From Leucoraja ocellata (lineage: Eukaryota), in assembly GCA_036785375.1 (NCBI GenBank), contig JAWMAR010000471.1, forward strand, positions 682,001-746,000: a stretch of DNA of 64,000 nucleotides, written 5' to 3'. How positions within the stretch are numbered: the stretch's first letter is position 1; each line of letters opens with the position of its first letter. Below the pieces are notes generated by a model. That model was not told the origin of the DNA and searched no databases. It saw only the letters and a list, made by a program, of their open reading frames with translations. This document shows, piece after piece, positions 6,042 through 63,596 of this stretch. Made by a program: the position numbers and the translations under genes.

Positions 6042-6149
6042 GAGATGTGGGTGGGCAACGGGGTCTCAGCCAATTGAAATACACGTAGCCGGAATCCAGC
6101 TTTCCCCCCCGAGAGTATTCGCATCCGCTTGAATAAACCTTGATTGAGG

Positions 6150-8610: not shown

Positions 8611-8619
8611 GTGATCACA

Positions 8620-14744: not shown

Positions 14745-15039
14745 TATAGCGCTGTTTGACTTCTCACTTTGACTCCTATAAGTTTTGCACTGCATAACTG
14801 CGGACGGCTTGAAGGAAAAATGGGTTGGAAGCGGCACTTGGAAGTTGAATATTATTATTATCCAATTCTGGCAGCAATCGGAGTACCCGGTAGGTCAAGG
14901 GAACGCTGTAAGTAGAACTGAGATGTGGGGTGATGTGTTGATAAAGACAATGTCAAAGGTAAAGTGTAAATAGTGTGCGAAACACGGGAATGCTAGACTG
15001 CAATCTTCAGGTTAGGGCGGTATTAACTAGAAAATGTTT

Positions 15040-15203
15040 GTTTAAGAAATTACTGCAGTTGCTGGAGAAATCGAAGCAAGACAAAAATGCTGGAGAATTA
15101 GACAGCGGGTGAAGCGGCATCTAGGAAGCGAAAGAATAGGTGACGTTTCGGGTCGAGACTGATCAGTCTGAAGAAGGGTCTCGACCCGAAACGTCACCTA
15201 TTC
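15040..15203. mobile_element. Penelope-like element terminus with inverted repeat and minimal hammerhead ribozyme core
   Basis: Perfect 26-bp inverted arms 15134-15159 and 15178-15203; CTGAAGA-a-gggt(ctcg)accc-GAAAC-GTC core at 15168-15195. Confidence 0.7.
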
Positions 15204-15419
15204 CTTTGTTAAGCTACTTGATCGTTGGTCGTTTATTGGATCTGGCACAGGTTAATTCTCTTCAGGTTTAGGTGCATTGTTGTCATGTATTTCCGGGAGC
15301 TGCAAAAAGCTATGGTTTGCAAGAAATCAAAATTAGATCAAATAATATTAAATAACAGTACAAACAATTCAATCTCAGTAACAGGTAGTGTAAAAGGGGA
15401 AATCGGAGTGCAGAGCGTA

Positions 15420-16050
15420 GTTCAAGTTTGGGAGCGCACTGCAGCGTATCACATCCACAAAGCCCAATGTCCGCAAGGGGATACAGGTGAAACGGCAATG
15501 CCCTGGCATATGGAAGAGCGGCTCAGAAGCCTGACAACAGAGGGGAAAGAGCTGTTCTGGAGTGTGGTGGAGCGAGCTTTAAGCCTTCTCCATTTTCTGC
15601 CCGACGAGAGCAGGAAGTAGAAGGAGTGAGCGGGGTGAAACATGTCTCCGTTTCCAATGGATTGTGAAGTGCGAACGCAGTCAACAGTGCGGAGTCCATT
15701 TCGTGATATGGACCCGGCGTCTTCCAGAACCCTGTGCAATTTATTCTTTATGGGGCATAGATGGCCCCACAACAAGCTTTGTGCGGCACCGTTGTTGAGA
15801 ATTATTGTGGAAGGGTGTTACCACTAATTCTCTCGGTTTATTCTTTAGGAAGTTGAGTATCCATTCGCAAGCTGGTGCACTGATCGCTGGGCTCTGGAGT
15901 TTATCAATGGGTTTGGATGGGAGTAGTGTTGAAGGCAAGTTCTCCAGCGGAGAAATGGGAATCCGACTTTCGACCCCTTGTTGCCCGGCTGTTCCCGGGA
16001 AGGGTTTAGGTCCAGGACGATGGCGTCTGATGCGGACATGTTGCTGCAAT
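15420..16050 (-). mobile_element. Degenerate Rex1-type LINE in the GPCR intron (also ~34470-35100 and ~49280-50236)
   Basis: HPAHSFYFLLSSGRKWRRLKARSTTLQNSSFPSVVRLL and IDKL...CEWILNFL on the minus strand; copy 3 additionally has NVSVNKTKELVIDFRK. Confidence 0.7.
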
Positions 16051-17835
16051 ATGCAGTCTGCGGTGCATCACGGGTGGCTGGGAGACAGCTCACGCTACCT
16101 GCGTAGACCGCTGCTAATTAATCCGCACAGCTCCTTAGCACGCACACAGGTTTGCATGTGGGCAGTTGTTTTCGAACAAATAAGCAAAACGTAACCCAAG
16201 ATTGACCCCCGCCTCCAAATTTGCATCACGTGTCCCTTACTTGTAAGTACAGCTTTCTCTTTTCTACACCCGCAGTGAACTTGCTGGCAATTGTGATCCT
16301 GGCCCGCAGAAATTGTGGTCTCTCCAAATGCACCACTCGGTACCTGGTGGCCATGGCGACGGCGGACCTCTCTGTGATTGTCTGCGACGTGATATTAAAT
16401 CGGATTGCCGACCTTTACTGGATGAAAACATTCCTCTTCCACAATACTGTGTGCAGGTTCATTATGTTCCTCGCTCCCGCGGCCGTTGCCTGTTCTGTGT
16501 GGCTCACGGTTGCTTTCACATTTGATCGCTTTGTGGCCATTTCCACTCAGACTCTGAGAACCAGATACTGCACTGAGAGAACCGCGCTGGTGGTTATAGT
16601 GACCATAACTGCGTTCTTCTGTTTACAGAACGTCCCCTGGCCTTTTGCGTACAATTATTATTTCAGGGATCGGCAGGGTATACAGTGGGGTTGCCTAATA
16701 CGATATCAGTTGTATAGCCTATCCTCGTGGATAGTTTTTTTCCTGGACTCAACAGCTGCTAGTCCCAGTCATTCCATTTTGTTTGATTATGCTGATGAAC
16801 GTGCTCACAGTCAGACGCATTTTAGTGGCCAGTCGTGTCCGCAGAAAACTCCGCGATCTCAGTAGTGAGGACCCCGAGATCGCAAAGCGCAGACGGTCCG
16901 TAATTTTACTCCTTGCAATCTCCAGCAGTTTTATGCTGCTCTGGGGCACAACTGTGGTATATTTCGTTTTCTATCGAATTACGAATGCATTTTGGGTCAG
17001 GGGGTTTAGGAACCCATATGCAACATTTGATCAAACAGCTATTCTGCTACAACTGTTGAACACCTGCACAAACACGCTCATTTACACCGTGACACAGAGG
17101 AGGTTCAGACAGCATCTGCTCCAGGTACTCATGTACCCCTTCACCCTAACTGTAAGTTTAATAAAATCGAGAAAATCTGGTGTAAAATAACATTACAAAT
17201 CCTTGTGTGAGTAAGTGCAAAAACTAGGTAATGAAGGAGTTTTCGCTGAAATCTTTCTGCATCAATTTTCCAAAAAATAGCTTAGAAATACAAGCTGAAC
17301 GCGCCCCTTGCACTGGAATGCACATTTGGCCATCTATTTAACATACGACACGGGCTCGTTGTTCAAAGTGCCCAATGGGAAGGGCGGCCATGTGGAACCG
17401 AGTGCTATGTTGTACTGGAGCAGACCTCCAATGATTCCGGAATTGAGCCTCGCCGTTAACTGTTTCCACATTCCTTTGAATCCAGCGGCAAAGTCTCCAG
17501 CACGTGATGAAAACAGACATAGTTATGGTCCTAAACATTGCATGCTCCATTACTCTACACTTCTTTGAGACGTTCCATAGTTACTTGTGTAAATGCCCAG
17601 TGCACCACTGTGTTCCATAAAATTACTGCTGCAACATTTACATTAATGAGAGTTCCATTTTATATTTGTTTCTCGCACTGAATGTAATGCCTCGTTGCTT
17701 CTTACTGAGGTTTTCGGTTTCCATTGCAATTCTTAATTCTGCACCAGATGCAGCCAAAGGTAGTGGGTGCCGTTAAAACAATTTGGCATTACTAACTATA
17801 TGTTTTAATGGAAGCAGAGTGTCACAAGCGGGAGT

Positions 17836-17849
17836 CCAGTAGAGGGCGG
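17836..17849 (+). promoter_or_regulatory. CTCF-like site downstream of GPCR copy 1
   Basis: CCAGTAGAGGGCGG; paralogous sites at 36893-36906 (CCAGTAAACGGCTG, degenerate) and 52021-52034 (CCAGTAGATGGCTG). Confidence 0.55.
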
Positions 17850-17920
17850 TAAAGTGAGTAAGTTCGCCTGTGTGGTAAGCCAGAGAATCTGAATCGTTTT
17901 GCATTAATGCCCAACGTCAA

Positions 17921-20900: not shown

Positions 20901-22480
20901 AGTTCCTCTACCCCCTTAGATCATCTGTCCTCCAGCACACATGGGAGATTGTTTGTGTCTTCTTCAGTGGAGACAGATCCGAGGTACCAGTTCAACTATT
21001 CTACCATTTCATTATTACCCATAATAATTTCACCCGTGTCTGTCTTCAAGGGACCCACATTTGACGTTGCTACTCTTTTTCCCTTAATATATCTAAAGAA
21101 GCTTTTATAGTCCATCCTGATATTCCTGGCCAGCTTCCCCTCACACTTCATCTTCTCAGCCCTTATTGCCCGTTTTGTTTCCTTCTGTTGTCCTATGAAA
21201 GTTTCCCAATGCTATAGCTTCCCGCCAGTTTAACTCCTGCTGAAAATTACACGCTACATCCGGGCTACTGTTTTGGGAGGTTTGTAGAAAGCACCAATTA
21301 GTGTCTTCTTGTCTTTATAATTCTTCAACTGAAACCACAGTGACTCTGCCACGTAAGTCCCTATGTCTTCCCTCGCAAGGTATTGAATTCCATCCCTCAA
21401 CAGCAGAGATACACACACCCCCCCCCTCCCCACCACCCCCCTCCTCTGCCCACCTGACTGTCCAATCTTTAGGATGTAGAAATTACATTCCTAGGCCCGA
21501 TCCTCCTGCAGACACGTCGCAGTAACCCCCACAACGCCATATCTACCAACCTCTAACTGAGCCTCAACCTCATCTCCTTTACTTCTTATACTTCGCGCAT
21601 TCATATACAATACTTTTAATTCCTTACGCATCTCACCTTTCCCGTCGATCCCTATTACACTTGGCCATAGTCTCCTATCATTTGTGAGCTATCTTTCCCG
21701 TTAATCCTGGGGGTCATTAACTACCCATTTACTCTCTTTCCCTTTTTATCCCATTTGACACCCCACCCCCATTATTCAGTTTGAAACCCACCTGTGTAGC
21801 AGTGGCAAAGCTGCCTGCCAGAATGCTGGTGTCCCACTTGTTAAGGTGCAATCAGTCCCTTTAGTACAGTTGTGCCTTACTCCAAAACAGACCCCAGTGG
21901 TCTAAGAATCTAAATCCCTGCCTCCTGCAACAGGTCCTCAGCCACATATTCAGGTCCTGTATCTCCCTGTTCTTGCTCTCGCCAGCACGAAGAACTGGAA
22001 GCAAACCGGAGTCAAACACCCTGGAGATCCTGCTTTTCCGAGCTTCTAAAGTCCTGCTAAATAATATTCATCCCCTTCTTTCCAACATCGTTTGTGCCGA
22101 CATGCACTACCACTTCCGGCTGTTCACCTACGCCCTTGAGGATTTGCTGTACTCTGTCCGTGACAACCTGGATCCTGGCACCAGGGAGGCGACGCTCCAT
22201 CCTCGAATCCCGTCTGTTGCCGCAGAAACCCCTGTCCGTACCTCTCATAATGGAGTCTCCAACTACCACGGCGTTGCCAGACGTCGGCCTCTTTGGTTTT
22301 GGCTCAACAGCACTTTTTGCTTCGCAAGCCACTCCGCCGATCAGTGTGTTAACGGGATCTGTCCCGACAGCTTCTAAGTGGGTGAGCCTGTTCTCAAGAG
22401 GTAAAACACCCAGGGACGTTTGCAATCCATGTTTCCTTCCCTTTCTCACTGTCACCCACCTTCTCTCTTCAAGTACCTTG
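17921..22480 (-). mobile_element. Long degenerate CR1 (ORF1 esterase to RT) interrupted by a plus-strand CR1
   Basis: RT motifs at 18453-18848(-); ORF1 GDS...HVGTND at 22057-22480(-); host sequence gggataa|...|taacatt resumes at 20701. Confidence 0.85.
19018..20700 (+). mobile_element. 5'-truncated CR1 (family B) nested antisense in the previous element
   Basis: NYRPVSLTS, DFQKAFD, FADD, (ttctatgt)n tail; same junction at ~38062 and 53222. Confidence 0.9.
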
Positions 22481-24147: not shown

Positions 24148-24493
24148 TGAAACGAGAAGCTGCGTCGCCTTACCGGCCCTCTATCGGCCTCCTCCCATCG
24201 TGTGCGGGCGAGCCGGGACTACAGGCTGAGTTCCCGCGCGAGGCGCTTGTCCTCCCTCCTCGGTCTGCAGCGGGCGAACCAGGCATACTGGGCCGGTCAT
24301 CATTGATAGGCGATTGAGGTCTGGCCTAGCCGGTGATACTCTGTCGGCGGTGCCCTGCCTACTGCTGGGTTTGGCCGCGGCTATATCACATTTGGCCGCG
24401 CTTTAGCCACATTCGAAACGCATGCAGGTTTGCCGTTTAATTGGTCTCTGTAATTGTTCCTATGTGAAGGAGGGAGGTTGTGTGCGGGTACTT

Positions 24494-25021
24494 CTACAGA
24501 GGCCCAGGGAGCCGTTGGCGAGAGGAGGTCTTACCTGGAGCTGTGAGTATAAAAACAGCGCGGGGCTTGCTTCTACAGAGGCCCGGGGAACCGTTGGCGA
24601 GAGGGGGTCTTACCTGGAGCTGTGAGTATAAAAACAGAGCGGGGCTTGCTTCTACAGAGGCCCGGGGAGCCGTTGGTGCGAGGAGGAGTTACCTGGAGCT
24701 GTGAGTATAAAAACAGCGCGGGGCTTGCTTCTACAGAGGCCCGGGGAGCCGTTGGTGCGAGGTGGAGTTACCTGGAGCTGTGAGTATAAAAACAGCGCGG
24801 GACTTGCTTCTACAGAGGCCCGGGGAGTCGTTGGTGCGAGGTGGAGTTACCTGGAGCTGTGAGTATAAAAACAGCGCGGGGCTTGCTTCTACAGAGGCCC
24901 GGGGAGTCGTTGGTGCGAGGTGGAGTTACCTGGAGCTGTGAGTATAAAAACAGCGCGGGACTTGTTTCTACAGAGGCCCGGGGAGTCGTTGGTGAGAGGA
25001 GGACTTACCTGGAGCTGTGAG
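24494..25021 (+). repeat. 79-bp tandem repeat, ~6.7 copies, CR1 5' UTR
   Basis: Units start at 24494, 24573, 24652, 24731, 24810, 24889 and 24968; each full unit contains TATAAAA. Confidence 0.95.
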
Positions 25022-25189
25022 TTACCCAAATCACCAACGTTCCATCTCACTTCCAGAGAAAGATTCTGATTCTGGTGGAAGCCTCTGATTGGTGGAAGAG
25101 GACCAGCAGAAGCAGCTGATTGGCTGATTGGCTTGTATTGTATTTGCATTGGAATTGTAAGGCTTTATTGTATTTGGATAAGGGGGACA

Positions 25190-26126
25190 ATGAAGGCCAG
25201 GGCAGTTTACTGTTCTGGATGTCAGATGTGGGAGGTCATGGAGTCGGAGTGCCCTCCAGACGTCCACATCTGCGCAAGGTGCGTCGAGATGGAGCTCCTA
25301 AGGGACCGTGTCAGGAACCTGGAACAGCAACTCGATGACCTCTGTCTGCTCAGGGAGAACGAGGAGGTCATAGAAAGGAGTTACAGGGAGGTGGTCACTC
25401 CAAGACCACGGGAGACAGAAAACTGGGTCACAGTTAGGAAGGACAACGGGCAGAGGCAGGGACTGGTGAGTACCCCGGTGGCTGTACACCTTAGAAATAA
25501 GTACTCATGTTTGAGTAAGGGTGGGGGGGGACAGCCTACCTGGGGGCAGCGACAGCGACCGGGTCTCTGGCACAAAGACCGGTCCGGTTGCTCAGAAGGG
25601 TAAGGAAAAGAAGGGGAGGGCAATTGTAATAGGGGACTCTATTGTCAGGGGTTCGGATAGGCGATTCTGTGGACGCAGACAGGAGTCCCGGATGGTAGTT
25701 TGCTTCCCTAGTGCCAGGGTCACGGATGTGTCTGAACGTGTCCAAGAAATCCTGAAATGGGAGGGAGAGGAGCCTGAGGTTGTGGTGCATATAGGTACCA
25801 ATGACATAGGTAAAAAAAGAGAAGAGGTCCTGAAAGAAGAATTTAGGGAGTTAGGTAGAGAGTTAAGGAGAAGGACTGGAAAGGTAACAATCTCAGGATT
25901 ACTGCCTGTGCCACGCGACAGTGCGAGTAGGAATGGAGTGAGGTGGAGGATAAATGCGTGGATGAGGGACTGGTGCAGTGGGTATGGATTCAAGTTTCTG
26001 GATCATTGGGGCCTCTTTTGGGGAAGGTGCGACTTGTACAGAAAGGACGGGTTGCACTTGAACTCAAGGGGGACAAATATCCTGGCGGGGAGATTTGCAA
26101 AGGCTACTGCGGAGACTTTAAACTAG
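25190..26126 (+). pseudogene. CR1 ORF1: zinc finger, coiled coil, SGNH esterase
   Basis: CSGC...CARC; LRDRVRNLEQQLDDL; GDS...HIGTND...DGLH; one frameshift at the G-run ~25523-25530. Confidence 0.88.
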
Positions 26127-26131
26127 TATGA

Positions 26132-29075
26132 TTGGGGGGAGGGACTCAAATTGGGAAAGCTAGCAGTCAGTGTGTGAAGCAGGGGGCAGAGAATGGTAGC
26201 ACTCTGACCCAAAATGTAGGGGAGAGAGAAGAAAAAGAAAATAATCAGAGAATAAGAGAGGGTGGGTTTCTTAAATGTGTATATTTTAATGCTAGGAGCA
26301 TTGTAAGAAAAGTGGATGAACTTAGAACCTGGATTGACACCTGGAAGTATGATGTTGTGGCGATCAGTGAAACATGGTTGCAGGAGGGCTGTGATTGGAA
26401 ATTAAATATTCCAGGATTTCGTTGCTTCAGGTGTGATAGAATTTGAGGGGCAAGAGGTGGAGGTGTTGCATTGCTTATCAGGGAAGATATTACAGCAGTG
26501 CTAGGCAGGATAGATTAGAGGGCTCGTCTAGGGAGACTATTTGGGTGGAACTGAGAAATTGGAAAGGGGTAGCAACACTTATAGGGGTGTATTATAGACC
26601 GCCAAATGGGGAGCGAGAATTGGAAGAACAAATATGTAAGGAAATTGCAGATATTAGTAGTAAGCACAAGGTAGTGATTGTGGGAGATTTCAATTTTCCA
26701 CACATAGACTGGGAAACACATTCTGTAAATGGGCTGGATGGTTTGGAGTCTGTAAAATGTGAGCAGCATAGTTTTTTGCAACACTACATAGAAGTACCTA
26801 CTAGAGAAGGGGCGGTACTGGACCTCCTGTTAGGAAATGAGATGGGTCAGGTGGCAGAGGTATGCGTTGGGGGACAGTTCGGGTCCAGTGAACACAATAC
26901 CATTAGTTTCAATATAAATATGGAGAGGGACAAAACTGGACCTAGGGTTGAGATTTTTGATTGGAGAAAGGCTAACTTTGAGGAGATGCGAAAGGATTTA
27001 AAAGGAGTAAATTGGGACAGTTTGTTTTATGGGAAAGATGTGGAAGAGAAATGGAGTACATTTAAAGGTGACATTTTAAGAGTACAGAATCTTTATGTCC
27101 CTGTTCGGTAGAAAGGAAATCGTAAAAATTGTAAAGAGCCATGGTTTTCAATGGAAATTGGACACTTGGTTCGGACAAAGAGGGAGATCTACAATAATTA
27201 TAGGCAGCATGGAGTGAATGAGATGCTTGAGGAGTATAAAGAATGTAAAAAGAATCTTAAGAAAGAAATTAGAAAAGCTAAAAGAAGATATGAGGTTGCT
27301 TTGGCATGTAAGGTAAAAGTAAATCCGAAGGGTTTCTACCGCTATATTAAAAGCAAAAGGATAACGAGGGATAAATCTGGTCCATTAGAGAGTCAGAGTG
27401 GACAACTATCTGCAGAGCCAAAAGAGATGGGGGAGATATTGAACAGTTTCTTTTCTTCGGTATTCACCAAGGAGAAGGATATTGAATTATGAGAGGTAAG
27501 GGAAACAAGTAGAATAGCTATGGAAACGACGAGGATCCAAGAAGAGGAAGTACTGACACTTTTGAGAAATATAAAAGTGGATAAGTCTCCAGGTCCGGAC
27601 AGGATATTCCCTAGGACATTGAGGGGAGTTAGTGTAGAAATAGCAGGGGCTATGGCAGAAATATTTCAAATGTCATTAGAAACGGGAATAGTGCCGGAGG
27701 ATTAGCGTACTACGCATGTTGTTCCATTGTTTAAACAGGGGTCTAAGTGTAAACCTAGCAATTATAGACCTGTTAGTTTGACGTCAGTGGTGGGCAAATT
27801 AATGGAAAGAATACTTAGAGATAATATATATAAGCATCTGGATAAACAGGGTCTGGTTAGGAACAGTCAACATGGATTTGTGCCTGGAAGGTCTTGTTTA
27901 ACTAATCTTCTTGAATTTTTTGAAGATGTTACACGGGAAATTGATGAGGGTAACGCAGTGGATGTTGTGTATATGGACTTCAGTAAGGCCTTTGACAAGG
28001 TTCCTCATGGAAGGTTGGTTAAGAAGGTTCTATGGTTGGGTATTAATGGTGGAGTAGCAAGATGGATTCAACAGTGGCTGAATGGGAGATGCCAGAGAGT
28101 AATGGTGGATGGTTGTTTGTCAGGTTGGAGGCCAGTGACGAGTGGGGTGCTACAGGGATCTGTGTTGGGTCTACTGTTGTTTGTCATGTACATCAATGAT
28201 CTGGATGATGGTGTGGTAAATTGGATTAGTAAGTATGCAGATGATACTAAGATAGGTGGGGTTGCGGGTAATGAAGTAGAGTTTCAAAGTCTACAGAGAG
28301 ATTTATGCCAGTTGGAAGAGTGGACTGAAAGATGGCAGATAGAGTTTAATGCTGATAAGTGTGAGGTGCTACATCTTGGCAGGACAAATCAAAATAGGAC
28401 GTACATGGTAAATGGTAGGGAATTGAAGAATGTAGGTGAACAGAGGGATCTGGGAATAACTGTGCACAGTTCCCTGAAAGTGGAATCTCATGTAGATAGG
28501 GTGGTAAAAAAAGCTTTTGCTGTGCTGGCTTTATAAATCAGAGCATTGAGTATAGAAGTTGGGATGTAATGTTAAAATTGTACAAGGCATTGGTGAGGCC
28601 AATTCTGGAATATGGTGTACAATTTTGGTCGCCTAATTATAGGAAGGATGTCAACAAAATAGAGAGAGTACAGAGGAGATTTCCTAGAATGTTGCCTGGG
28701 TTTCAGCAACTAAGTTACAGAGAAAGGTTGAACAAGTTAGGGCTTTATTCTTTGGAGCGCGGAAGGTTAAGGGGGGACTTGATACAGGTTTTTAAAATGA
28801 TGAGAGGGATAGACAGAGTTGACGTGGAAAAGCTTTTCCCACTGAGAGTAGGGAAGATTCAAACAAGGCGACATGACATGAGAATTAAGGGACTGAAGTT
28901 TATGGGTAACATGAGGGGGAACTTCTTTACTCAGAGAGTGGTAGCTGTGTGGAATGAGCTTCCAGTGAAGGTGGTGGAGGCAGGTTCGTTTTTATCATTT
29001 AAAAATAAATTGGATAGTTATATGGCTGGGAAGGGAATGGAGGGTTATGGTCTGAGCGCAGGTATATGGGACTAG
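26132..29075 (+). pseudogene. CR1 ORF2: AP endonuclease and reverse transcriptase
   Basis: YFNARS, ISETW, YYRPP, GDFN, QHGF, DFSKAFD, QGSVLG, YADD; 3 in-frame stops (27109, 27490, 27703) and 2 frameshifts (~26450, ~28530). Confidence 0.92.
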
Positions 29076-31219
29076 GGGAGATTATGTGTTCGGCACGGAC
29101 TAGAAGGGTCGAGATGGCCTGTTTCCGTGCTGTAATTGTTTTATGGTTATATGGTGTTATATGGTTACTTGCTGCTCGGTGCGGACGTGATGGAGCGAAG
29201 GGACAGTTTTCACTCTGTAAACTAAATTTAAGAAAACTCGAGCAATAGTTCACTTTATAATTCGCTCTCTTCAGAAATGGCTCGAAGTTAGATTGTTTCC
29301 CTTTCAAAGTCAGTATCGTGTAACTGAAATGTAACTAGCAGATGGATGAGTTGTCACCGGAAGTAAAGATAATGATATGTTTCTGTCTTCCTCTTCACAC
29401 TTCTTTATTCTTCCAAGTACTTTTTAGATATAGGGAACAACCGATGAAAAACTATAGCAGACAGAAATATATGCGGGATTGATTCGAGTTGATCGGAGAG
29501 CACCTTGGTTCGCATTGAATAATTAAAATTATTGAAACAGAATCTCTTGCTTGTTTCATATTGCTCGTGCTGACTGTGGTCCAACAACGAAGACATATTC
29601 ACCTGGTTAACTTGGCCAACACATTCCTAAGTATTCATAAATTGAGTGTTAATAATAAATAGATCTTGGACTAAATCGACTAAACCTGTTTTTTTATTCC
29701 TGTATTGAAAGAAGTTGCGCAACTTCTGGGGGCAGATACATCCACGGTAACCCGTCATTGTCAATGTGTATCTGCAACAACTGAGGTGCAGCTGTAGAAA
29801 CGCTGCCGAATATGACAGTGCCCCAATGCGTTATTTCATCGAACCTGCTTTTTAACATTACGACCGAACTCTCTCTTCAGTACATGAATGTATGTGTATT
29901 GCTAATATTATGCCAATCTCCGCTCAGTCACCATTCAAATACACCTTAGTGGTTGCACCTGACGAATTCCGTTTTGTAGAAAAATAAATAGCCTTGAACA
30001 TTAAACTTATTTTTCCCCTTACAACTGCTGCCTTGCCGCTGGAGATTTATTTTACTTTCTGTGCAATTGTACATGTTCAGTATCTGCGGTAGTTTGTATT
30101 TTATTAAACTACACCCTATTGATGCTGGTCCTAATTCGGCGCATGTTCTGCTGTATAAGCCAAACATGCCGGGTACAGCCATTGCCTGAAATGAAATACT
30201 TCGTTGAACAGCAGGCACAATCACGTTCACAATCACCGCACCTCTTCGGACTTCATGTTAGCCATTGCGAAATTAATATCAAACTTCCTAAACCTGGTCC
30301 AGGCTCTGTCTGTTTTGGAACTTATAACATAGAACATACAGCAAAAGATCGTTCAGTTTAGTTTATTACCTCGTGTACCGAGGTACATTGGAAAGCTTTT
30401 TTTGAGCTATCCAGTCAGCAGAAAGACAACACATGATTGTAATCGAGCCATTCACATTATTAAATATACATGATAATGGAACAAGGTTTAATACAAGGTG
30501 AAGCCAGCATAGCCCTATCAAACATGGTGCTCGGGTCAGCATTTAGATGGATCAGTTGAAGAACAGATTTTTAGTTCACAATGTTCCTGTCAACCCGATA
30601 CCAAGACCAGCTCCGATCTATTTGCGCTTAATCAACATCCTTCCATTCCCTGCAGAATCATATCTCCATCCAAAACTATTTTACATTCTACTATCGTATC
30701 CGCCTTAACCAGCAGCGCGTTATAAACACTCGCCACACTTTTTGTAAAACGTTGCGCCGTACATTTTCTTTAAATGTTCCCCTTCTTAGCATAAAGCTGT
30801 GCCCTCTTCGATACATTTTTTTCCATTCTGGGGAAATCAAAATTCTGACAATCTACCGGGTCTCATAAGTTTACATAACTCAACCAGTTGTCCCCGCAAT
30901 CTCCGACGTTCCAGAGGGATAACAATCCAAATCTGACCAATCTCTCCCTGTATCTAATACCCGCTAATCCAGCCACAATGCGCAACTGAGCAACTGCGGC
31001 TGTAAAACACGCTGTTCTTATTAAGTTTCTCCATCTTGCTGAATTGGCAAAGTCATTCACTAATGGCCTTGATGCCGGTCACCAGTTTGTGCAGAGTTGT
31101 AGTTTAGTTAATTTACATTAGGTTGGTGGAGTTAAAGTAACCTAAACAAATACAATTACAAAAACAATACTAACCAAAAAAACACAAATGAATGACCAGG
31201 TACACTACACCCACTGGCT

Positions 31220-33870: not shown

Positions 33871-36240
33871 ATGAGTTGGAAGCGGCACTTGGAAGTGGAA
33901 TATTATTATTATCCAATTCTGGCAGCAATCGGAGTACCCGGTAGGTCAAGGGAACGCTGTACGTGGGACTGAGATGTGGGGTGATGTGTTGATAAAGACA
34001 ATGTCAAAGGTAAAGTGTAAATAGTGTGCGAAACACGGGAATGCTAGACTGCAATCTTCAGGTTAGGGCGGTATTAACTAGAAAATGTTTGTTTAAGAAA
34101 TTACTGCAGTTGCTGGAGAAATCGAAGCTAGACAAAAATGCTGGAGAATTAGACAGCGGGTGAAGCGGCATCTAGGAAGCGAAAGAATAGGTGACGTTTC
34201 GGGTCGAGACTGATCAGTCTGAAGAAGGGTCTCGACCCGAAACGTCACCTATTCCTTTGTTAAGCTACTTGATCGTTGGCCGTTTATTGGATCTGGCACA
34301 GGTTAATTCTCTTCAGGTTTAGGTGCATTGTTGTCATGTATTTCCGGGAGCTGCAAAAAGCTATGCTTTGCAAGAAATCAAAATTTGATCAAATAATATT
34401 AAATAACAGTACAAACAATTCAATCTCAGTAACAGGTAGTGTAAAAGGGGAAATCGGAGTGCAGAGCGTAGTTCAAGTTTGGGAGCGCACTGCAGCGTAT
34501 CACATCCACAAAGCCCAATGTCCGCAAGGGGATATAGGTGAAACGGCAATGCCCTGGCATATGGAAGAGCGGCTCAGAAGCCTGACAACAGAGGGGAAAG
34601 AGCTGTTCTGGAGTCTGGTGGAGGGAGCTTTAAGCCTTCTCCATTTTCTGCCCGACGAGAGCAGGAAGTAGAAGGAATGAGCAGGGTGAAACATGTCTCC
34701 GTTTCCAATGGATTGTGAAGTGCGAACGCAGTCAACAGTGCGGAGTCCATTTCGTGATATGGACCCGGCGTCTTCCAGAACCCTGTGCAGTTTATTCTTT
34801 ATGGGGCATAGATGGACCCACAACAAGCTTTGTGCGGCACCGTTGTTGAGAATTATTGTGGAAGGGTGTTACCACTAATTCTCTCGGTTTATTCTTTAGG
34901 AAGTTGAGTATCCATTCGCAAGCTGGTGCACTGATCGCTGGGCTCTGGAGTTTATCAATGGGTTTGGATGGGAGTAGTGTTGAAGGCAAGTTCTCCAGCG
35001 GAGAAATGGGAATCCGACTTTCGACTCCTTGTTGGCCGGCTGGTCCCGGGAAGGGTTTAGGTCCAGGACGATGGCGTCTGATGCGGACATGCTGCTGCAA
35101 TATGCAGTCTGCGGTGCATCACGGGTGGCTGGGAGACAGCTCACGCTACCTGCGTAGACCGCTGCTAATTAATCCGCACAGCTCCTTAGCAAGCACCCAG
35201 GTTTGCATGTGGGCAGTTGTTTTCGAACAAATAAGCAAAGCGTAACCCAAGATTGACCCCCGCCTCCAAATTTGCATCACGTGACCCTTACATGTAACTA
35301 CAGTTTCCTCTTTTCTACACCCGCAGTGAACTTGCTGGCAATTGTGATCCTGTCCCGCAGAAATTGTGGTCTCTCCAAATGCACCACTCGGTACCTGGTG
35401 GCCATGGCGACGGCGGACCTCTCTGTGATTGTCTGCGAAGTGATATTAAATCGGATTGCCGACCTTTACTGGATGAAAACATTCCTCTTCCACAATACTG
35501 TGTGCAGGTCCATTATGTTCCTCGCTCCCGCGGCCGTTGCCTGTTCTGTGTGGCTCACGGTTGCTTTCACATTTGATCGCTTTGTGGCCATTTCCACTCA
35601 GACTCTGAGAACCAGATACTGCACTGAGAGAACCGCGCTGGTGGTTATAGTGACCATAACTGCGTTCTTCTGTTTACAGAACGTCCCCTGGCCTTTTGCG
35701 TACAATTATTATTTCAGGGATCTGCAGGGTATACAGTGGGGTTGCCTAATACGATATCAGTTTTATAGCCTATCCTCGTGGATAGCATTTTCCTGGACTC
35801 AACAGCTGCTAGTCCCAGTCATTCCATTTTGTTTAATTATGCTGATGAACGTGCTCACAGTCAGGCGCATTTTAGTGGCCAGTCGTGTCCGCAGAAAACT
35901 CCGCGATCTCAGTAATGAGGACCCCGAGATCGCAAACCGTAGACGGTCCGTAATTTTACTCCTTGCAATCTCCAGCAGTTTTATGGTGCTATGGGGCACA
36001 AATGTAGCATATTTCGTTTTCTATCGAATTACGAATGCATTTTGGGTCAGGGGGTTGAGGAACCAATTTGCAACATTTGAACAAACTGGAATTCTGCTAC
36101 AACTGTTGAACACCTGCACAAACACGCTCATTTACACCGTGACCCAGAGGAGGTTCAGAGAGCAGCTGCTCCAGGTACTCATGTACCCCTTCACCCTAAC
36201 TGTAAGTTTAATAAAATCTAGAAAACCGGGTGTAAAATAA
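33871..36240 (+). CDS. GPR139/142-like class A GPCR copy 2, 327 aa (exon1 33871-33940, exon2 35327-36240)
   Basis: MSWKRHLEVEYYYYPILAAIGVP|VNLLAIVILS; TM2 LVAMATADL, TM3 C..FTFDRFVAI, ECL2 WGC, TM5 IPF, TM6 FMVLW, TM7 NTCTNTLIY; intact GT-AG phase-1 intron of 1386 bp. Confidence 0.92.
34185..34254. mobile_element. Penelope hammerhead inverted repeat, copy 2
   Basis: Identical to 15134-15203. Confidence 0.7.
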
Positions 36241-41149: not shown

Positions 41150-43815
41150 GAGGCTTTGGCATGATAGATTGGAGGGCTCATCTAGGGAGGCTATTTGGGT
41201 GGAATTGAGGTGGGAAAGTTGTAGCAACACTTATAGGGGTGTATTATAGACCGCCAAACGGGGAACGAGAACTGGAAGAGCAAATATGTAAGGAGATAGC
41301 AGAGATTAGTAGTAAGCACAAGGTAGTGATTGTGGGAGATTTCAACTTTCCACACATAGACTGGGAAACACATTCTGTAAATGGGCTGGATGGGTTGGAG
41401 TTTGTAAAATGTGTGCAGGATAGTTTTTTGCAGCAACACATAGAGGTACCTACTAGAGGAGGGGCAGTGCTGGACCTCCTGTTAGGAAATGAGACTGGAC
41501 AGGTGGCGGAGGTATGCGTTGGGGAGCACTTCGGGTCCAGTGATCACAATACCATTAGTTTCAATATAACTATGGAGAGGGTCAGAACTGGACCTAGGGT
41601 TGAGATTTTTGATTGGAGAAAGGCTAACTTTGATGCGATGCGAGATGATTTAAAAGGAGTGAACTGGGACATTTTGTTTTATGGGAAAGATGTAGAAGAG
41701 AAATGGAGGACATTTAAAGGGGAAATTTTAAGAGTACATAATCTTTATGTTCCTGTTCGGTTGAAAGGAAACAGTAAAAATTGGAAAGAGCCCTGGTTTT
41801 CAAGGGAAATTGGACATCTTGTTCGGAAAAAGAGGGAGATCTACAATAATTATAGGCAGCATGAAGTAAATGAGGTGCTTGAGGAGTATAAGGAATGTAA
41901 AAAGAATCTTAAGAAAGAAATTAGAAAAGCTAAAAGAAGATATGAGGTTGCTTTGGCAAGTAAGGTGAAAGTCAATCCAAAGGGTTTCTACAGCTATATT
42001 AATAGCAAAAGGATAAGGAGGGACAAAATTGGTCCATTGGAGAGACAGAGTGGACAGCTATCTGCAGAGCCAAAAGAGATGGGGGAGATATTGAACAATT
42101 TTTTTTCTTCGGTATTAACCAAGGAGAAGGATATTGAATTATGTGAGGTAAGGGAAACTAGTAGAGTAGCTATGGATACTATGAGGTTCAAAGTAAAATA
42201 AGTACTGACACTTTTGAAAAATATAAAAGTGGATAAGTCTCCAGGTCCTGACAGGATATTCCCTAGGACATCGAGGGAAGTTAGTGTAGAAATAGCCGGG
42301 GCTATGACAGAAATATTTCAAATGTCATTAGGAACGGGAATAGTCCCCGAGGATTGGCGTACTGCGCATGTTGTTCCATTGTTTAAAAAGGGTTCTAAGA
42401 GTAAACCTAGCAATTATAGACCTGTTAGTTTGACTTCAGTGGTGGGCAAATTAATGGAAAAGATACTTAGAGATAATATATATAAGCATCTAGATAAACA
42501 GGGTCTGATTAGGAACAGTCAACATGGATTTGTGCCTGGAAGGTCATGTTTGACTAATCTTCTTGAATTTTTTGAAGAGGTTACTAGGGAAATTGACGAG
42601 CGTAAAGCAGTGGATGTTGTCTATATGGACTTTAGTAAGGCCTTTGACAAGGTTCCTCATGGAAGGTTGGTTAAGAAGGTTCAACTGTTGGGTATAAATG
42701 CAGGAATAGCAAGATGGATTCAACAGTGGCTGAATGGGAGAAGCCAGAGGGTAATGGTGGATGGCTGTTTATCGGGTTGGAGGCAGGTGACTAGCGGGGT
42801 GCCTCGGGGATCTGTGTTGGGTCCTTTGTTGTTTGTCATGTACATCAATGATCTGGATGAAGGTGTGGTAAATTGGATTAGTAAGTATGCAGATGATACC
42901 AAGATAGGGGGTGTTGTGGATAATGAAGAGGATTTCCAAAGTCTACAGAGTGATTTAGGCCATTTGGAAAAATGGGCTGAAAGATGGCAGATGGAGTTTA
43001 ATGCTGATAAATGTGAGGTGCTACACCTTGGCAGGACAAATCAAAATAGGAGGTACATGGTAAATGGTAGGGAATTGAAGAATACAGTTGAACAGAGGGA
43101 TCTGGGTATAACCGTGCATAGTTCCTTGAAGGTGGAATCTCATATAGATAGGGTGGTAAAGAAAGCTTTTGGTATGCTAGCCTTTATAAATCAGAGCGTT
43201 GAGTATAGAAGCTGGGATGTAATGTTAAAATTGTACAAGGCATTGGTGAGGCCAAATCTGGAGTATGGTGTACAATTTTGGTCGCCAAATTATAGGAAGG
43301 ATGTCAACAAAATAGAGAGAGTACGGAGGAGATTTACTAGAATGTTGCCTGGGTTTCAGCAACTAAGTTACAGAGAAAGGTTGAACAAGTTAGGGCTTTA
43401 TTCTTTGGAGCGCAGAAGGTTAAGGGGGGACCTGATATAGGTCTTTAAAATGATGAGAGGGATAGACATATTTGATGTGGACAAGCTTTTCCCTTTGAGA
43501 ATAGGGAAGATTCAAACAAGAGGACATGACTTCAGAATTAAGGGACAGAAGTTTAGGGGTAATATGAGGGGGAACTTCTTTACGCAGAGAGTGGTGGCGG
43601 TGTGGAATGAGCTCCCAGTGGAAGTGGTGGAGGCAGGTTCATTGGTATCATTTAAAAATAAATTGGATAGGCATATGGATGAGAAGGGAATGGAGGGTTA
43701 TGGTACGAGTGCAGGCAGGTGGGACTAAGGGGAAAAAAATTGTTCGGCATGGACTTGTAGGGCCGAGATGGCCTGTTTCCGTGCTGTAATTGTTATATGG
43801 TTATATGGTTATATG
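41150..43815 (+). mobile_element. Young 5'-truncated CR1 (family A) ORF2, unit 2 only
   Basis: ORFs 41239-42201, 42214-43440 and 43450-43728 share one frame with only two point stops; (ttatatgg)n tail; empty site atatgcgggattgattcg at ~29470 and ~59393. Confidence 0.95.
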
Positions 43816-44359
43816 GGATTGATTCGAGTTGATCAAGAGCACCTTGGTCACATTGAATAATTAAAATTGTTGAAACAGAATCTCTTGCTTGTTTCATATT
43901 GCTCGTGTTCAGAGTTCTTCAACGACGAAGACATATCCACCTGGTTAACTTCGCCAACACATTCCTAAGTATTCATAATTTGAGTGTTAATAATAAATAG
44001 ATCTTGGACTAAATCGACTAAACCTGGTGTTTTTATTCCTGTATTGAAATAAGTTGCGCAACTTCTGGGGGCTGATAAATCCTCGGTAACCCGTCATGGT
44101 CAATGTGTATCTGCAACAACAGAGGTGCAGCTGTAGAAACGCTGCCGAATATGACAGTGCCCCAAAGCTTTATTTCATCGAATCTGCTTTTTAACATTAG
44201 GACCGAACTCTCTCTTCAGTACATGAATGTATTTGTATTGCTAATATTATGCCAATCTCTGTTCAGTCACCATTCAAATACACTTTACTGATTGCAACTG
44301 GCGAATTCCGTTTTGTAGAAAAATAATTAGCCTTGGACATTAAATGTATTTTTCACCTT

Positions 44360-48676: not shown

Positions 48677-51369
48677 ATGAGTTGGAAGCGGCACTTGACA
48701 GTTGAATATTATTATTATCCAATTCTGGCAGCAATCGGCGTACCCGGTAGGTCAATGGAATGCAGTAAGTGGGACTGAGATGTGGGATGCTGTGTTGATA
48801 AAGACAATGTTAAAGGTAAAGTGAAAATAGTGTGCGAGACACGGGAATGCAAGACTGCATTCTTCAGGTTAGGGCGGTATTAACCAGAACATGTTGATAT
48901 ACTTGCATCAGAAAGAACTGCATTTGCTGGAGAAATCGAAGCCGCACAAAAATGCTGTAGAACCTCAGCGGACGAAGCAGCATCTGAGAAGCGAAGGAAT
49001 AGCTGACGTTTCGGGTCGAGAGCGATCAGTCTGAAGGGTCTCGATCCGAAACGTCACCTATTCCTTTGTTAATATACTTGATCGTTGGTCGTTCATTGGA
49101 TCTGGCACAGGTTAATTCTCTTCAGATTCAGATTTACGTGCATTGTAGTCATGTCTCTCCGGGAGTTGCAAAAAGCTTTGGTTTGCAAACAATCCAATCA
49201 GATCAAATAATATTAAATACCAGTACTAACAATTCAATCTCAGCAACAGGTAATGTAAAGGGTGAAATCGGAATGCAGAGCACAGTTCAAGTATGGTCGC
49301 GCATAAAGCCCAATGTCAGCAAGGGGGTAGAGGTGATACGGCAACACCTTGGTATATGAAAACGCGGCTCAGAAGCCTGACAACAGAGGGGAGGAGGCAG
49401 TTCTGGAATCTGGTGATGTGAGCTTTAAGCCTTCTGTATCTTCTGCCCGACGGGTGCAGGAAGTATAAGGAATGAGCGGGGGTGAGACATGTATTTAAAC
49501 ATGTCGCCTCCGTATCCCAGGCTCAACATCGTGATATGGACCCGGCTTCATCCAGAACCATCTGCAATGTATTGTTTAAAAGGCAGAGATGTCCCCACAA
49601 CAAGCAATGATACACTCAACAGTAAGCGTTCAATGCTAATATGTAGCAGAAGGTTTGAGTCATTAGAGGCAGGTCAGAGTTTCTCAGTTTTCTCAGTAAA
49701 GGTGTTGGTCTGGATATCGGAGATAGATATTAATGAGATATTAACTCCGAGGAACTTGAAATCCTCCACCACCTCCACTTCAGCACCATTGATGGTGACC
49801 GGTGACCCACCGCATTTTCCTGAAATCGATAACTAGCTCCTTCGTCTTGTTGACACTGACGTTGAGATTGTTATTATCTGGAAACCTGTGGGAGCAGTTA
49901 CAGTTGGCCGCGGGGTCGTGAGTGTAGAGGGTGTAGTCGGGGAAGGAGCAGACATCTTTATGTGGCACCGTTGTAGAGAATGATTGTGGAAGGGGTGTTA
50001 TCACTAATTCTCACTGATTAAAGTATGTTCATCAGAAAGTCGAGTATCCACTCGCAAGCTGAGGTGCTGATCGCAAGGTTCAGGAGTTTATCAACGTGTT
50101 TGGATGGGGGCATTGATGAAGGCAAGTACTTCAGCGGATCAATGGGAATCGAACGTTCGACTGCTTGCTGCCCGGCTGTTCCCGAGAAGGGTTTATTACA
50201 AGGACGATTATGTCTGATGCGGACATGCTGCCGCAATATGCAGTCTACGGTGGATCAATGGTGGCTGGGAAACAGCTCACGCTGCCTGCGTATTCCGCTG
50301 CTAAATAATGCGCACATCTCCTTAGCACGCACCCAGGTGTGCATGTGGGCCAGTTGTTTTGGAACAAATAAACAAAGCGTAACCCAAGTTTAACCCCCGC
50401 CGCCTAATGAGCATCGCTCTTCCATTGCATGTAACGACAGTTTTCTCTTTTCCAGTGAACCTGCTGGCGATTGTGATCCTGTCCCGCAGAAATTGTGGTC
50501 TCTCCAAATGCACCACTCGGTACCTGGTGGCCATGGCGACAGTGGACCTCTTCGTGATCGTCTGCGAAGTGATATTACATCGGATTGCCGACCTTTACTG
50601 GATGTACTCTTTCCTCTTTCACAATACTATGTGCAGGTCCATTATGTTCCTCGCTCCCGCGGCCGTTGCCTGTTCTGTTTGGCTCACGGTCGCTTTCACA
50701 TTTGATCGCTTTGTGGCCATTTCCACTCAGAATCTGAGAACCAGATACTGCACCGAGAGAACCGCGCTGGTGGTTATAGTGACCCTAACTGCGTTCTTCT
50801 GTTTACTGAACGTCCCCTGGCCGTTTGCGTACAATTATTATGTCAGGGATAAGCAGGATATACTGTGGGGTTGCCAAATACGATATCACTTCTACAGCCT
50901 ATCCTCGTGGATAGCATTTTCCTGGACTCAACAGCTGCTAGTCCCAGTCATTCCATTTTGTTTGATTATGATGATGAACGTGCTCACTGTCAGGCGCATT
51001 TTAGTGGCCAGTCGTGTCCGCAGAAAACTCCGCGATCTCAGTAATGAGGACCCCGAGATCGCAAACCGCAGACGGTCCGTAATTTTACTCCTTGCAATTT
51101 CCAGCAGTTTTATGCTGCTCTGGGGCACAAATGTAGCATATTTCGTTTTATATCGAATTACGAGTGCATTTATGTCCAGGGGGTTGAAGAACCCATTTCC
51201 AACCTTTGAACAAACTGGAATTCTGCTACAACTGTTGAACACCTGCACAAACACGCTCATTTACACCGTGACCCAGAGGAGGTTCAGAGAGCATCTGCTC
51301 CAGGTACTGATGTACCCCTTCACCCTAACTGTAAGTTTAATAAAATCGAGAACACCAGGTGTAAATTAA
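48677..51369 (+). CDS. GPR139/142-like class A GPCR copy 3, 327 aa (exon1 48677-48746, exon2 50456-51369)
   Basis: MSWKRHLTVEYYYYPILAAIGVP|VNLLAIVILS; all 7TM motifs present; 1709-bp GT-AG intron; no stops. Confidence 0.92.
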
Positions 51370-60400: not shown

Positions 60401-63400
60401 GAACAAGGTTTAATGCAAGGTGAAGCCAGCATAGCCCGATCAAACATGGTGCTCGGGTCAGCATTTAGATGGATCAGTTGAAGAACAGATTTTTACTTCA
60501 CAATGTTCCTGTCGACCCGATACCAAGACCAGCTCCGATCTACCTGCGCGTAATCAATATCCTTCCATTCCCTGCAGAATCATATCTCCATCCAAAACTA
60601 TTTTACACTCTACTACCGTATCCGCCTTAACCAGCAGCGCGTAATAAACACTCGCCGCACTTTGTGTAAAACGTTGCGCCGCACATTTTCTTTCAATGTT
60701 GCCCTTCTTAGCATAAAGCTGTGCCCTCTTCGATACATTTTTTTCCATTCTGGGAAAATCAAAGTTCTGACAATCTACCGGGTCTCATAAGTTTACATAA
60801 CTCAACTAGTTGTACCCGCAATCTCCGACGTTCCAGAGGGATAAAAATCCAAACATGACCAATCTCTCACTGTATCTAATACCCGCTAATCCAGCCACCA
60901 TGCGCAACTGAGCAACTGCGGCTCTAAAGCTCGCTGTTCTTATTAAGTTTCTCCATCTTGCTGAATTGGCAAAGTCATTCACTAATGGCCTTGTTGCCGG
61001 TCACCAGTTTGTGCAGCGTTGTAGTTTAGTTAGTTTACATTAGTTTGGTGTAGTTCAAGTAATCTAAACAAATACAATTACACAAACAATACTATACAAA
61101 AAAACTAAACAAATGAATGACCAGGTACACTACATGTACAGGCTCACCCTTGTCCATTGCCCTACTACCTTCTTAAAAAAATCCAGAACATTAGTCAAGC
61201 GTGATTTCCCCTTCGTAAATCCATGCTGACTCGGACCGATCCTGTTACTGCGATCCAAATGTGCGGCTATTTCGTCTTTTATAATTGATTCCAGCATCTT
61301 CCCCACCACCGATGTCCGGCTAACTGGTCTATAATTCTCTGTTTTATCTCTCCCGCCTTTCTTAAACTGTGGGAAAACATTAGCTACCCTCCAATCCACA
61401 GGAACTGATCCTGAATCTTTAGAACATTGGAAAATTGTCACCAATGCAACCACGATTTCTAGAGCCATTTACTTAAGTACCATGGGATGCAGACTATCAG
61501 GCCTTAGGGATTTATCAGCCATCAGTCCCTTCAGTCAACCCAACACCATTTCATGCCTGATGTGGATTTCCTTCAGTTCCTTCGTTAACCCAGATCCTCT
61601 GGCCACTACTACATCAGGAAAATTGTTTGTGTCCTCCCTAGTGATGACTCCCCAGATTAATGGTATCAATGCGAACATATTGTTTGTGTCCTCCCAAAGT
61701 AACTGTTCAACTCGTCTGCCATTTTCTTGTTCCCCTTAATAAATTCACTTTTTTCAGTCTTCTTGGACCCAGTCTTCAAGGATGTAGTTGAGGCAGGTAC
61801 TGTTGCAACGTTTAAGACATAATGCGACAGGTACATGAGTAAGATATGTTCAGAGGAATATGGCCACTCGTAGGCAGGTGGGGTGTGCAGATGGGGTACA
61901 TTGGTCATCGTGGGCAGGTTGTGCCTGTCATGATTATATTGTCTCTCGTGGTAACGTCCACAACGTGAAATGTCAATTCACAACATCGTTCGTTCCACAG
62001 TATTAAAATATCCTGACCTATATAGTCTCTCTCGGAATAGAATGTCTCCACTCCTGCCAAAACGTTGTCGTTAATACGCTGCCACTCCCCAGATTAATGA
62101 TATCAATGCGAACATATTGCGATCTGGAGAACATCGCACGTGCGGTCTCGCCAACGCCCCAGGCCAGATGGTGAAAAGGCCCTGTTTCTGTGCTGTGTAA
62201 CATGCAACTACCACTTACAGTGAGAGTTGGTTCAATATACCTGCCCCCCCCCCCCCCCCCCCCCCCCCGTGAGGGAGAGTATCCGCTGCGTCCCTTTAAA
62301 TATTTACCGTCTTATTTTATACTCCTGTCCTCTTTTAGAGACCTACATCAGAGGAACACATTAAAATATTTCAACTGATCACCTTGTTATATTTTAATTC
62401 TGCATAACTCCTCATGGTTTTATTCGCTGCTGAGAGATACAGTTTCTGCATTCTGCAGTCCATCTCATAATTCACACTGTCCAATATTAGTACCATTCGT
62501 GTGAGGAGAGTTGCATACTCCCTAGTTTAAATGGATCCTTAATAAATTATTTCGAAAAATAATATCCCTCCTCCTTTGGTGTACTGCTCTGTGAAGTTTT
62601 TGTCTGTGAATTGCTTAGGTCGAGTGCAGCAAACATGACATTTCTTTCTTTGGTCAAGACTGTCTTCAGGATGATCTATCCCCAAACATTTACAGCCGGT
62701 GAGATTCTCCTTAACCGATTCAATCATCTTGTACATCAACATTCTTGATATCTCCAACGGATCATTGAATTGAGAAGATTTCTCCCTAATATCTGGAATA
62801 ACATCAAATGCTGTTCACCTCTGTGTTTTATGAATTAACACATTTCTTTAAAGATAATCTGTTGGTCAAGAATATTTCTAGCCGTTGTATATTTCCAGTC
62901 AGTTATCACATTACACATTATATTCGCCTATTCTTTACTTCATGAAGTGGCAACAGTTGAAATACATTAATGCTGCTGTTGTAGCTGAACTGTATACGAT
63001 GTCGTCTAGTAGGTTCCCTGTGGTTTACATCATTTAGACCCTGCCAAAAAATGATTATCTTTCCGTTTGAAAGGCAGCTACACGGATAATGCAAGATGAA
63101 ATTATTAATGGGTGCATGTTAAATGAAGGGCACGGTGTCTGGAAAATGCATTGCAAATTCGACAAGTAATATACTGTATTACATCGTAGCATGTGTGGAT
63201 AAATGATACATGACACGAATTTTGCTGCATCTGTGTGCCACGCGTTAACATTTAAAAATAGAATGTTCACTCGTATTTTACAGTTCCTTAGTTCTGTTGG
63301 TGCTCAGCTGGTGCCTGAGTAGTGAGCGGTCGCATAATGAGTTTGATCGCTTTGCATCACATGGGAGCAAACTATTTGTTCAACGGTCCACAATACATTT

Positions 63401-63526
63401 CCGCGGGGAGGTGAACGCACGCAGTCCTTCAGTTTTTTCTAAGAATATAAATATAGCGCTGTTTGACTTCTCACTTTGACTCCTATAAGTTTTGCACTGC
63501 ATAACTGCGGACGGCTTGAAGGAAAA

Positions 63527-63596
63527 ATGGGTTGGAAGCGGCACTTGGAAGTTGAATATTATTATTATCCAATTCTGGCAACAATCGGAGTACCCG
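63527..63596 (+). CDS. GPR139/142-like GPCR copy 4, exon 1 only (exon 2 beyond the window)
   Basis: MGWKRHLEVEYYYYPILATIGVP + G|gtagg donor; TATA at 63446. Confidence 0.85.

Follow-up and report, generated by a model that had tools for sequence, protein, structure and literature searches.

On sequence grounds, the tandem array in the 64-kb stretch of DNA analysed here (the window) consists of recently duplicated genes of a large chondrichthyan family that is related to GPR139 yet distinct from it, probably forming a chemosensory repertoire that acts through one G-protein pathway; we put the chances of this reading as a whole at about even. The family, which stems from a peptide-receptor clade, is likely an overlooked sensor set for outside molecules.

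The earlier note had described four co-oriented paralogs at 15-19 kb spacing, and mapping of four exon-1 copies confirmed this. The array comprises four class A GPCR genes of two exons each, 14.8-19.1 kb apart on the forward strand, with exon 1 starting at 14820, 33871, 48677 and 63527 (spacing 19,051, 14,806 and 14,850). Exon 1 is 70 nt long with a GT donor in all four copies, and exon 2 of copies 1-3 directly follows an AG acceptor. Exon 1 of copy 1 (14820-14889; 23 codons plus 1 nt) covers the short N-terminus and most of TM1, and is followed by a phase 1 GT-AG intron of 1386 nt (14890-16275) and by exon 2 (16276-17190). In this exon the T run at 16735-16741 is longer by one base, which causes a +1 frameshift with a stop at 16865 and a product of 219 aa. 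In three public DNA runs, from other individuals or species, the contigs listed lack the extra base, and one of these has six T at the site, in frame; copy 1 is either a pseudogene or the result of a homopolymer error. Copy 2 (exon 1, 33871-33940; intron of 1386 nt, 33941-35326; exon 2, 35327-36240) and copy 3 (exon 1, 48677-48746; intron of 1709 nt, 48747-50455; exon 2, 50456-51369) are intact and encode 327 aa each. Copy 4 is represented by exon 1 (63527-63596), its exon 2 falling past the end of the window, so its motifs are not visible. A TATA-like hexamer occurs in identical form upstream of all four ATGs (for copy 1 at 14739-14744, a distance of 81 nt) and may act as a promoter element.

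The genes lie in units repeated in tandem, each about 15-19 kb long (14161-64000, forward strand), which start near 14161, 33211, 48019 and 62868. Since unit-level alignments extend over 4.7-6.3 kb at 89-92% identity, the array is not due to chance. An assembly artefact, with uncollapsed haplotypes or a chimeric consensus posing as separate genes, might be suspected from the introns of copies 1 and 2, which are 98.1% identical. However, the spacers between units differ by 8-16%, the units carry their own LINE insertions, the gene occurs in several variants among the contigs of the three public DNA runs, and comparable single-species, single-contig tandem arrays are annotated in other sharks. 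The spacer divergence and the unit-specific LINE insertions speak against haplotigs, a caution raised in the earlier note, and we rejected them; an artefact of any kind is extremely improbable. The units are mosaic paralogues: copies 2 and 3 share 299 of 327 residues, and exon 2 of copy 2 resembles copy 1 in its 5' part and is nearer copy 3 in parts of its 3' side, a mosaic that presumably arose by unequal crossing-over or gene conversion. A search against Rfam gave no match.

The probable fifth copy previously proposed upstream is indicated by spacer sequence alone. Alignment showed that 362-13112 (forward strand) matches the copy 2-to-3 spacer at 77-92% identity, in the same order though with interruptions, and that the match begins in the 3' flank (+448 to +455 from the stop); tblastn found no fifth coding copy in the 64-kb window. 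Since the spacer is colinear from the 3' flank onward, a further unit upstream is likely, with its coding part before base 1.

The class A assignment is supported by Pfam 7tm_1 matches of 67.7 and 68.4 bits (cut-off 30.5) and by the presence of N1.50, D2.50, R3.50, P5.50, W6.48, N7.49 and Y7.53; core residues are invariant across 120 family proteins. In copies 2 and 3, N1.50 is residue 25, the motifs DRF, LWGT and NTLIY occur, and no N-X-S/T sequon was found anywhere in the 327-aa proteins. The short N-terminus, missing sequon and unusual motifs reported earlier thus hold for these two copies, the motifs being family- or clade-wide traits rather than features of the array itself; the TM6 proline (6.50), for example, is replaced by Thr in 94 of the 120 family proteins.

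GPR139 and GPR142 are vertebrate orphan class A GPCRs activated by aromatic amino acids, and the array receptors might be sensors of the same type. NCBI gives the whole family the automatic label 'probable GPR139', among receptors of solved structure GPR139 is the closest to it (73.2 bits in a profile comparison, with CCR5 following at 50.5), and its atlas neighbours are clusters labelled GPR139, FMRFamide-receptor and Srw. By its nearest relatives, the family appears to belong to the GPR139/142-MIP-FMRFamide superclade. The likeness extends to the TM1 motif, Asn at 5.58, a TM7 without Pro at 7.50 and the two-exon gene, a structure given for GPR139 and GPR142 in PMC7318219. Against this, identity to human GPR139 is only ~26% (66 identities counted by eye; E 1.4e-6), compared with 70% between human and zebrafish GPR139 (PMC7318219), and at the GPR139 ligand contacts D2.61, E3.32, R6.51 and N7.38/39 (PMC12775434) copies 2 and 3 have N/H, A, N and I, with Thr at 6.50. 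The family also has TM3 and ECL2 cysteines, Cys occupying 3.25 in 114 of 120 proteins where GPR139 has Asp, and it is multigene with fast turnover, whereas GPR139 and GPR142 are conserved. In a fold search, which did not discriminate among class A receptors, a structure model of exon 2 (pLDDT 86.1) reached TM 0.71-0.74 with peptide receptors and 0.61-0.67 with GPR139 structures, a fit to the former no worse than to the latter. GPR139 orthology was rejected on the identity, the replaced contacts and the replaced Pro 6.50; the GPR139/142-like identity claimed earlier survives as nearest solved relative and not as orthologue, the amino-acid-sensor analogy is weak, and sensing of aromatic amino acids by the array receptors is very unlikely.

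The family search returned 1212 clusters at E<=0.001. Among the best 120 of these, 119 bore chondrichthyan names (sharks, rays, chimaeras) and one was unnamed; 48 were named for Heptranchias and held 128 member sequences, and in the three of these that were checked all 24 members were from Heptranchias, with each cluster on one contig. Ten long-branched or basal family members were checked and all proved chondrichthyan. In trees that included amphioxus and invertebrate relatives and lacked true GPR139 and GPR142, the family formed one clade (99/97; a 188-row FastTree agreed), whose sister was a conserved amphibian/sturgeon gene (P0217 group; 99/95). None of the proteins returned could be identified as a true GPR142. 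The window's own subfamily includes a chimaera member and spans chimaera to skates, and therefore family and subfamily predate the holocephalan-elasmobranch split. A recent birth-and-death expansion, as the earlier note had it, is upheld as an expansion, with only the local array recent and the family older.

The amphibian/sturgeon 'probable GPR139' (P0217) and a coelacanth-type gene (P0228) share the TM3 and ECL2 cysteines with the family and are 27-29% identical to copy 2; unlike the array family, they give about one match per species, and their pocket hardly varies (95.9%). The coelacanth-type gene is separate from the family because it has shark orthologues of its own. These genes may belong to GPR210A/B, the GPR139/142-related sets of PMC6504862, the supplement of which held no text matching that correspondence. 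In the literature searched, the larger result sets of which were viewed in part, no published description of the family was found, and PMC10620051 and PMC11886862 made no mention of the terms sought. Canonical OR, V1R, V2R or T2R membership was rejected: all 67 members screened matched 7tm_1 and none had an olfactory, vomeronasal or taste-receptor Pfam domain, the other matches being Srx (8), Srw (1, E 1.6e-11) and DUF7535 (1).

At 27 positions, which we take to form the pocket from generic class A numbering and not from a liganded structure, pairwise identity was 39.9% among 120 family proteins (the matches nearest the query, not a census) versus 74.5% among 120 coelacanth-type orthologues. 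Whole-protein identity was matched (59.1 and 61.2, respectively) and the cytoplasmic half was equally conserved (77.3 and 76.9). In the family, the pocket had higher entropy than the outer positions next to it (p=0.015); in both orthologue controls it had lower entropy than they did (p=0.042 and 7e-5). A varied pocket with a conserved cytoplasmic half is what a repertoire of many ligands and one pathway would show. The repertoire proposed earlier is thus matched family-wide but not inside the window's 32-member subfamily, where the pocket is no more variable than its neighbours (65.6 vs 67.3%, p=0.78).

Between copies 2 and 3, 12 of 28 amino-acid differences fall within the 42 residues of ECL2 and ECL3 (Fisher p=3e-5), where pN/pS is 1.28, a value based on 15 and 3 changes that relaxed constraint fits equally, versus 0.24 in the non-extracellular part. 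The array copies share almost one pocket and are therefore likely near-redundant variants of one specificity, around which they would be tuned at ECL2 and ECL3. An alternative is that recombination between the abundant LINEs multiplies the copies, which then drift under little functional demand, most of them being receptors for an internal ligand that are redundant or expressed at a low level. The repeat-rich, mosaically diverging units, the frameshift in copy 1, the nearly uniform pockets of the array and an overall dN/dS of 0.41-0.57 would suit this. We consider this quite unlikely in view of the low non-extracellular pN/pS, the invariant core, the retention of the subfamily from chimaera to skates, and the concentration of divergence in the pocket, which is the conserved part in both orthologue controls.

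In line with a chemosensory repertoire, the multigene family is large, arranged in tandem and subject to lineage-specific turnover, and its many differing pockets would feed one shared G-protein pathway. The pockets are predicted to take peptide-sized molecules from outside the body; peptide-type ligands are suggested because of the TM3 and ECL2 cysteines, the modelled ECL2 hairpin and the MIP/FMRFamide/GPR139 clade ancestry. Expression would be expected in chemosensory cells of the nose, mouth or skin; one RNA run (other organism, tissue not stated, ~6% of reads) gave near-zero exon depth and no spliced joint, a result that counts neither for nor against expression. Tandem arrays, turnover and variable pockets, all seen in the family, likewise characterise expansions of immune GPCRs, and the family could instead be a leukocyte or barrier-tissue repertoire for microbial or damage-derived peptides, like FPRs or MRGPRs. 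In its favour, catshark OR genes are reported to reach their highest expression in spleen or ampullae (PMC11979771) and MAS1-type receptors are reported to be absent from cartilaginous fishes (PMC8455134), which would leave room for such a role. We hold this reading unlikely, as the similarity to FPR, chemokine or MRGPR receptors is no more than generic for class A (CCR5 50.5 vs GPR139 73.2 bits), and the nearest known parallels from the same clade, srw and planarian Srf/w, are called chemoreceptors that arose from FMRFamide-type receptors (PMC8120010 and PMC4862687). If the family were immune, the most ancient lineage of jawed vertebrates would possess a large sensing family that is still uncharacterised.

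Returning to chemosensation, a more specific proposal, tentative and rather unlikely, is a hitherto unrecognised cartilaginous-fish chemoreceptor family of >100 genes in some species, exceeding V2Rs, which would be derived from the GPR139/FMRFamide clade in parallel to nematode srw and would act in olfactory neurons or chemosensory neurons of another kind. PMC10116579 describes chondrichthyan chemosensation as resting on a few dozen receptors, with 8-43 V2Rs and 6-13 ORs per genome in 11 species other than Heptranchias. It also reports catshark olfactory neurons to be microvillous and V2R-dominated, which gives no evident need for another nasal family. PMC8455134 calls cartilaginous fishes poor in GPCRs. 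A repertoire of diversified pockets under one automatic label would change the chondrichthyan receptor count, and the >100-gene reading, if true, would account for odour discrimination by sharks and rays despite their few canonical receptors. The conserved amphibian/sturgeon sister gene offers a handle on the ancestral ligand.

Vertebrate OR, TAAR, V1R, V2R, T2R, FPR and MRGPR repertoires form tandem clusters with birth-and-death turnover, short N-termini and variable pockets. The array family resembles them in all four respects but is of other ancestry. Nematode srw and planarian Srf/w, which offer a precedent for the proposed repertoire, are likewise large lineage-specific expansions, from FMRFamide-type peptide receptors, and one of the 67 family members matches the Srw domain as noted above; these protostome families, themselves mostly orphan, probably expanded independently of the array family.

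The receptor array is real and, as a tandem duplication, ordinary; it marks an old GPCR repertoire of chondrichthyans whose pockets have diversified and which seems to be undescribed. Its four copies lie on the forward strand, each with a first exon of 70 nt followed by a phase-1 GT donor and starting at nucleotides 14820, 33871, 48677 and 63527, respectively. The second exons of copies 1–3, behind AG acceptors, start at 16276, 35327 and 50456, and copy 4 is truncated by the window end. Copies 2 and 3 specify 327 amino acid products with 299 identical residues, and both possess the DRF, LWGT and NTLIY motifs and lack a glycosylation sequon, as an earlier note on this DNA had stated. In copy 1 an additional base within the T run at 16735–16741 leads to a stop after 219 codons; apart from this, the shifted frame reads through to the normal stop. 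This base was absent from all contigs listed over the break from three public DNA runs, one contig showing an in-frame run of six T. Since these runs come from other individuals or species, the frameshift may stem from a homopolymer error or represent a private allele. The closest named protein among the matches listed is from Leucoraja erinacea (90%), which makes a skate the likely source.

Since nucleotides 362–13112 are a colinear repeat of the inter-gene spacer, a fifth unit probably lies upstream of the window; this much of the fifth copy that the earlier note thought probable stands, but no further coding copy was located within the 64 kb. The stretch between 744 and 321 nt ahead of the receptor ATG has a 69–72% copy at nucleotides 8181–8615, which no exon follows and which represents an older duplicate's relic or a low-copy repeat. 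An intronic element (15162–15206), short, of extremely high copy number and abundant in DNA and RNA runs, is probably part of a SINE.

The window DNA is eukaryotic and repeat-rich, with LINE remains which we take to be of the CR1 type. Unit-against-unit alignments extend over kilobases at 84–92% identity, a level of divergence that appears unlike that of two haplotypes and makes an assembly artefact very improbable. The units are set apart by separate LINE insertions. Between copies 1 and 2, 78 of the 2951 sites that precede copy 2 position 36218 are unlike, as are 336 of the 3120 sites that follow it, a break which none of 1000 permutations matched; copy 2 is nearer to copy 3 along some stretches of the 3' side. 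Because the intron (1.9% divergent between copies 1 and 2) and the 3' flank (11%) are both non-coding, we infer that this patchiness arose by unequal crossing-over or gene conversion. Unit 1 contains a decayed, near full-length LINE (24491–29163) carrying an SGNH/GDSL esterase ORF1, an endonuclease and a reverse transcriptase, with 6.7 copies of a 79-bp tandem repeat at its 5' end. A 5'-shortened relative (91%) is found in unit 2 (41158–43816) at a different insertion site, ~350 bp away in unit coordinates.

Of 3424 candidates in a search with exon 2 of copy 2, 1212 clusters reached E≤0.001. The best 120 of these 1212 comprised 119 with chondrichthyan names (sharks, rays, skates and Callorhinchus) and one without a name, nearly all labelled "probable GPR139". 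Among the matches listed, at least 48 clusters (128 member sequences) were named for Heptranchias and at least 25 (59 member sequences) for Heterodontus; in three Heptranchias clusters checked, 24/24 members were from that species, with one contig per cluster. A 67-sequence profile gave 140 representatives at E≤1e-30, and the ten basal or long-branched ones checked were all chondrichthyan. Several database models of family members (P0005–P0025, P0002) have N-termini that look overlong or intron-derived, which suggests that annotation often misses the 70-nt first exon.

The best full-length outsiders are salamander, coelacanth, teleost and amphioxus proteins. The 25 matches returned for the salamander protein included 20 amphibian clusters and one sturgeon cluster, then family members at 32–33%, and no amniote or teleost. 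The best 120 of 145 matches to the coelacanth protein revealed a widely distributed gene, of which sharks have their own orthologues (60–66%). This second conserved GPR139-related orphan gene (P0228 group) occurs in sharks as well as in fishes, amphibians and reptiles; those 120 matches included neither birds nor mammals. In some of its records the name is fused with that of TMEM183A, which suggests that the two genes adjoin.

IQ-TREE, run on 35 rows under LG+G4 without a mixture model, placed the 19 family rows in a single clade (99/97). Its sister (99/95) was the amphibian and sturgeon gene (P0217 group), a conserved orphan receptor with a near-invariant polar pocket, and a Callorhinchus protein fell inside the window's subfamily (96/85). 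A 188-row FastTree, from which fragmentary representatives found with the profile were excluded, was concordant and revealed that Heptranchias, Pristiophorus and skates have each had species-specific bursts; both trees were built without true GPR139 and GPR142. The Callorhinchus placement and the trees indicate that the array is young and the family old, so that the recent expansion proposed earlier holds for the array but not for the family.

Among solved structures the best match was human GPR139, albeit weakly (E 1.4e-6, ~26% identity by manual count), with a profile score of 73.2 bits versus 50.5 for the next receptor. GPR139 orthology was rejected, since human and zebrafish GPR139 share 70% identity (PMC7318219, available part) and the agonist contacts D2.61, E3.32, R6.51 and N7.38 (PMC12775434, likewise in part) are replaced here by N/H, A, N and I, respectively. 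These replacements also render GPR139-like amino-acid sensing improbable. Cysteine occupies 3.25 in 114/120 family proteins, where human GPR139 has Asp, and the ECL2 cysteine is kept in 113/120. In the structure modelled for exon 2 (pLDDT 86.1), ECL2 contains short strands; TM values were 0.71–0.74 with peptide receptors and 0.61–0.67 with GPR139, a small gap. The unusual motifs, which the earlier note had ascribed to the array, are present but family-wide (F3.51, T6.50 and T7.50 in 109, 94 and 118 of 120 proteins). No N-terminal sequon was found in 58 matches starting with Met and of ≤335 amino acids.

Pocket diversity was investigated at 27 generic positions in 120 family proteins and 120 coelacanth-type orthologues. 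Mean pairwise pocket identity was 39.9% in the family versus 74.5% in the orthologues, at matched whole-protein (59.1 and 61.2) and inner-half (77.3 and 76.9) identities. Compared with neighbouring outer positions, the pocket varies more in the family, whereas in both orthologue sets it varies less. We propose that many ligands would act through different pockets upon one G-protein pathway, since this would give a variable pocket with a conserved inner half. The ligands would be peptide-type, because most characterised receptors of the clade bind peptides with aromatic ends (PMC8557429, in the part available), and, from the size and turnover of the repertoire, would come from the outside world. 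We give a chemosensory repertoire an even chance; an immune one is possible, though doubtful, and drift or redundancy rather unlikely. A caution against making too much of the pocket result is that the pocket shows no special variability (p=0.78) among the 32 members of the window's subfamily, and that copies 2 and 3 are unlike at 1/14 core pocket sites. ECL2 and ECL3 hold 12 of the 28 differences between these copies (p=3e-5); pN/pS there is 1.28, from 15 and 3 changes, and 0.24 for the non-extracellular part. In one RNA run (another organism, unstated tissue, ~6% read) exon depth was near zero.

Eleven cartilaginous fish genomes are credited with 6–13 OR, 3–5 TAAR, 2–4 V1R and 8–43 V2R genes (PMC10116579, in part), and these fishes are reported as GPCR-poor (PMC8455134, in part); the 24 supplementary files of the latter mention GPR142 alone, in an orthogroup list. 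Additional GPR139/142-related sets are named in coelacanth, gar and fishes (PMC6504862), the words shark and cartilaginous being absent from the available part. The main text of the catshark paper has no word beginning with GPR, and the accessible portions of PMC12294341 and PMC12208981 add nothing on sharks. No description of the family was found in the literature searched, most subscription papers lying outside its scope. The srw and Srf/w families of worms are likewise described, in the parts available, as expansions out of the same clade as the shark family (PMC8120010, PMC4862687).
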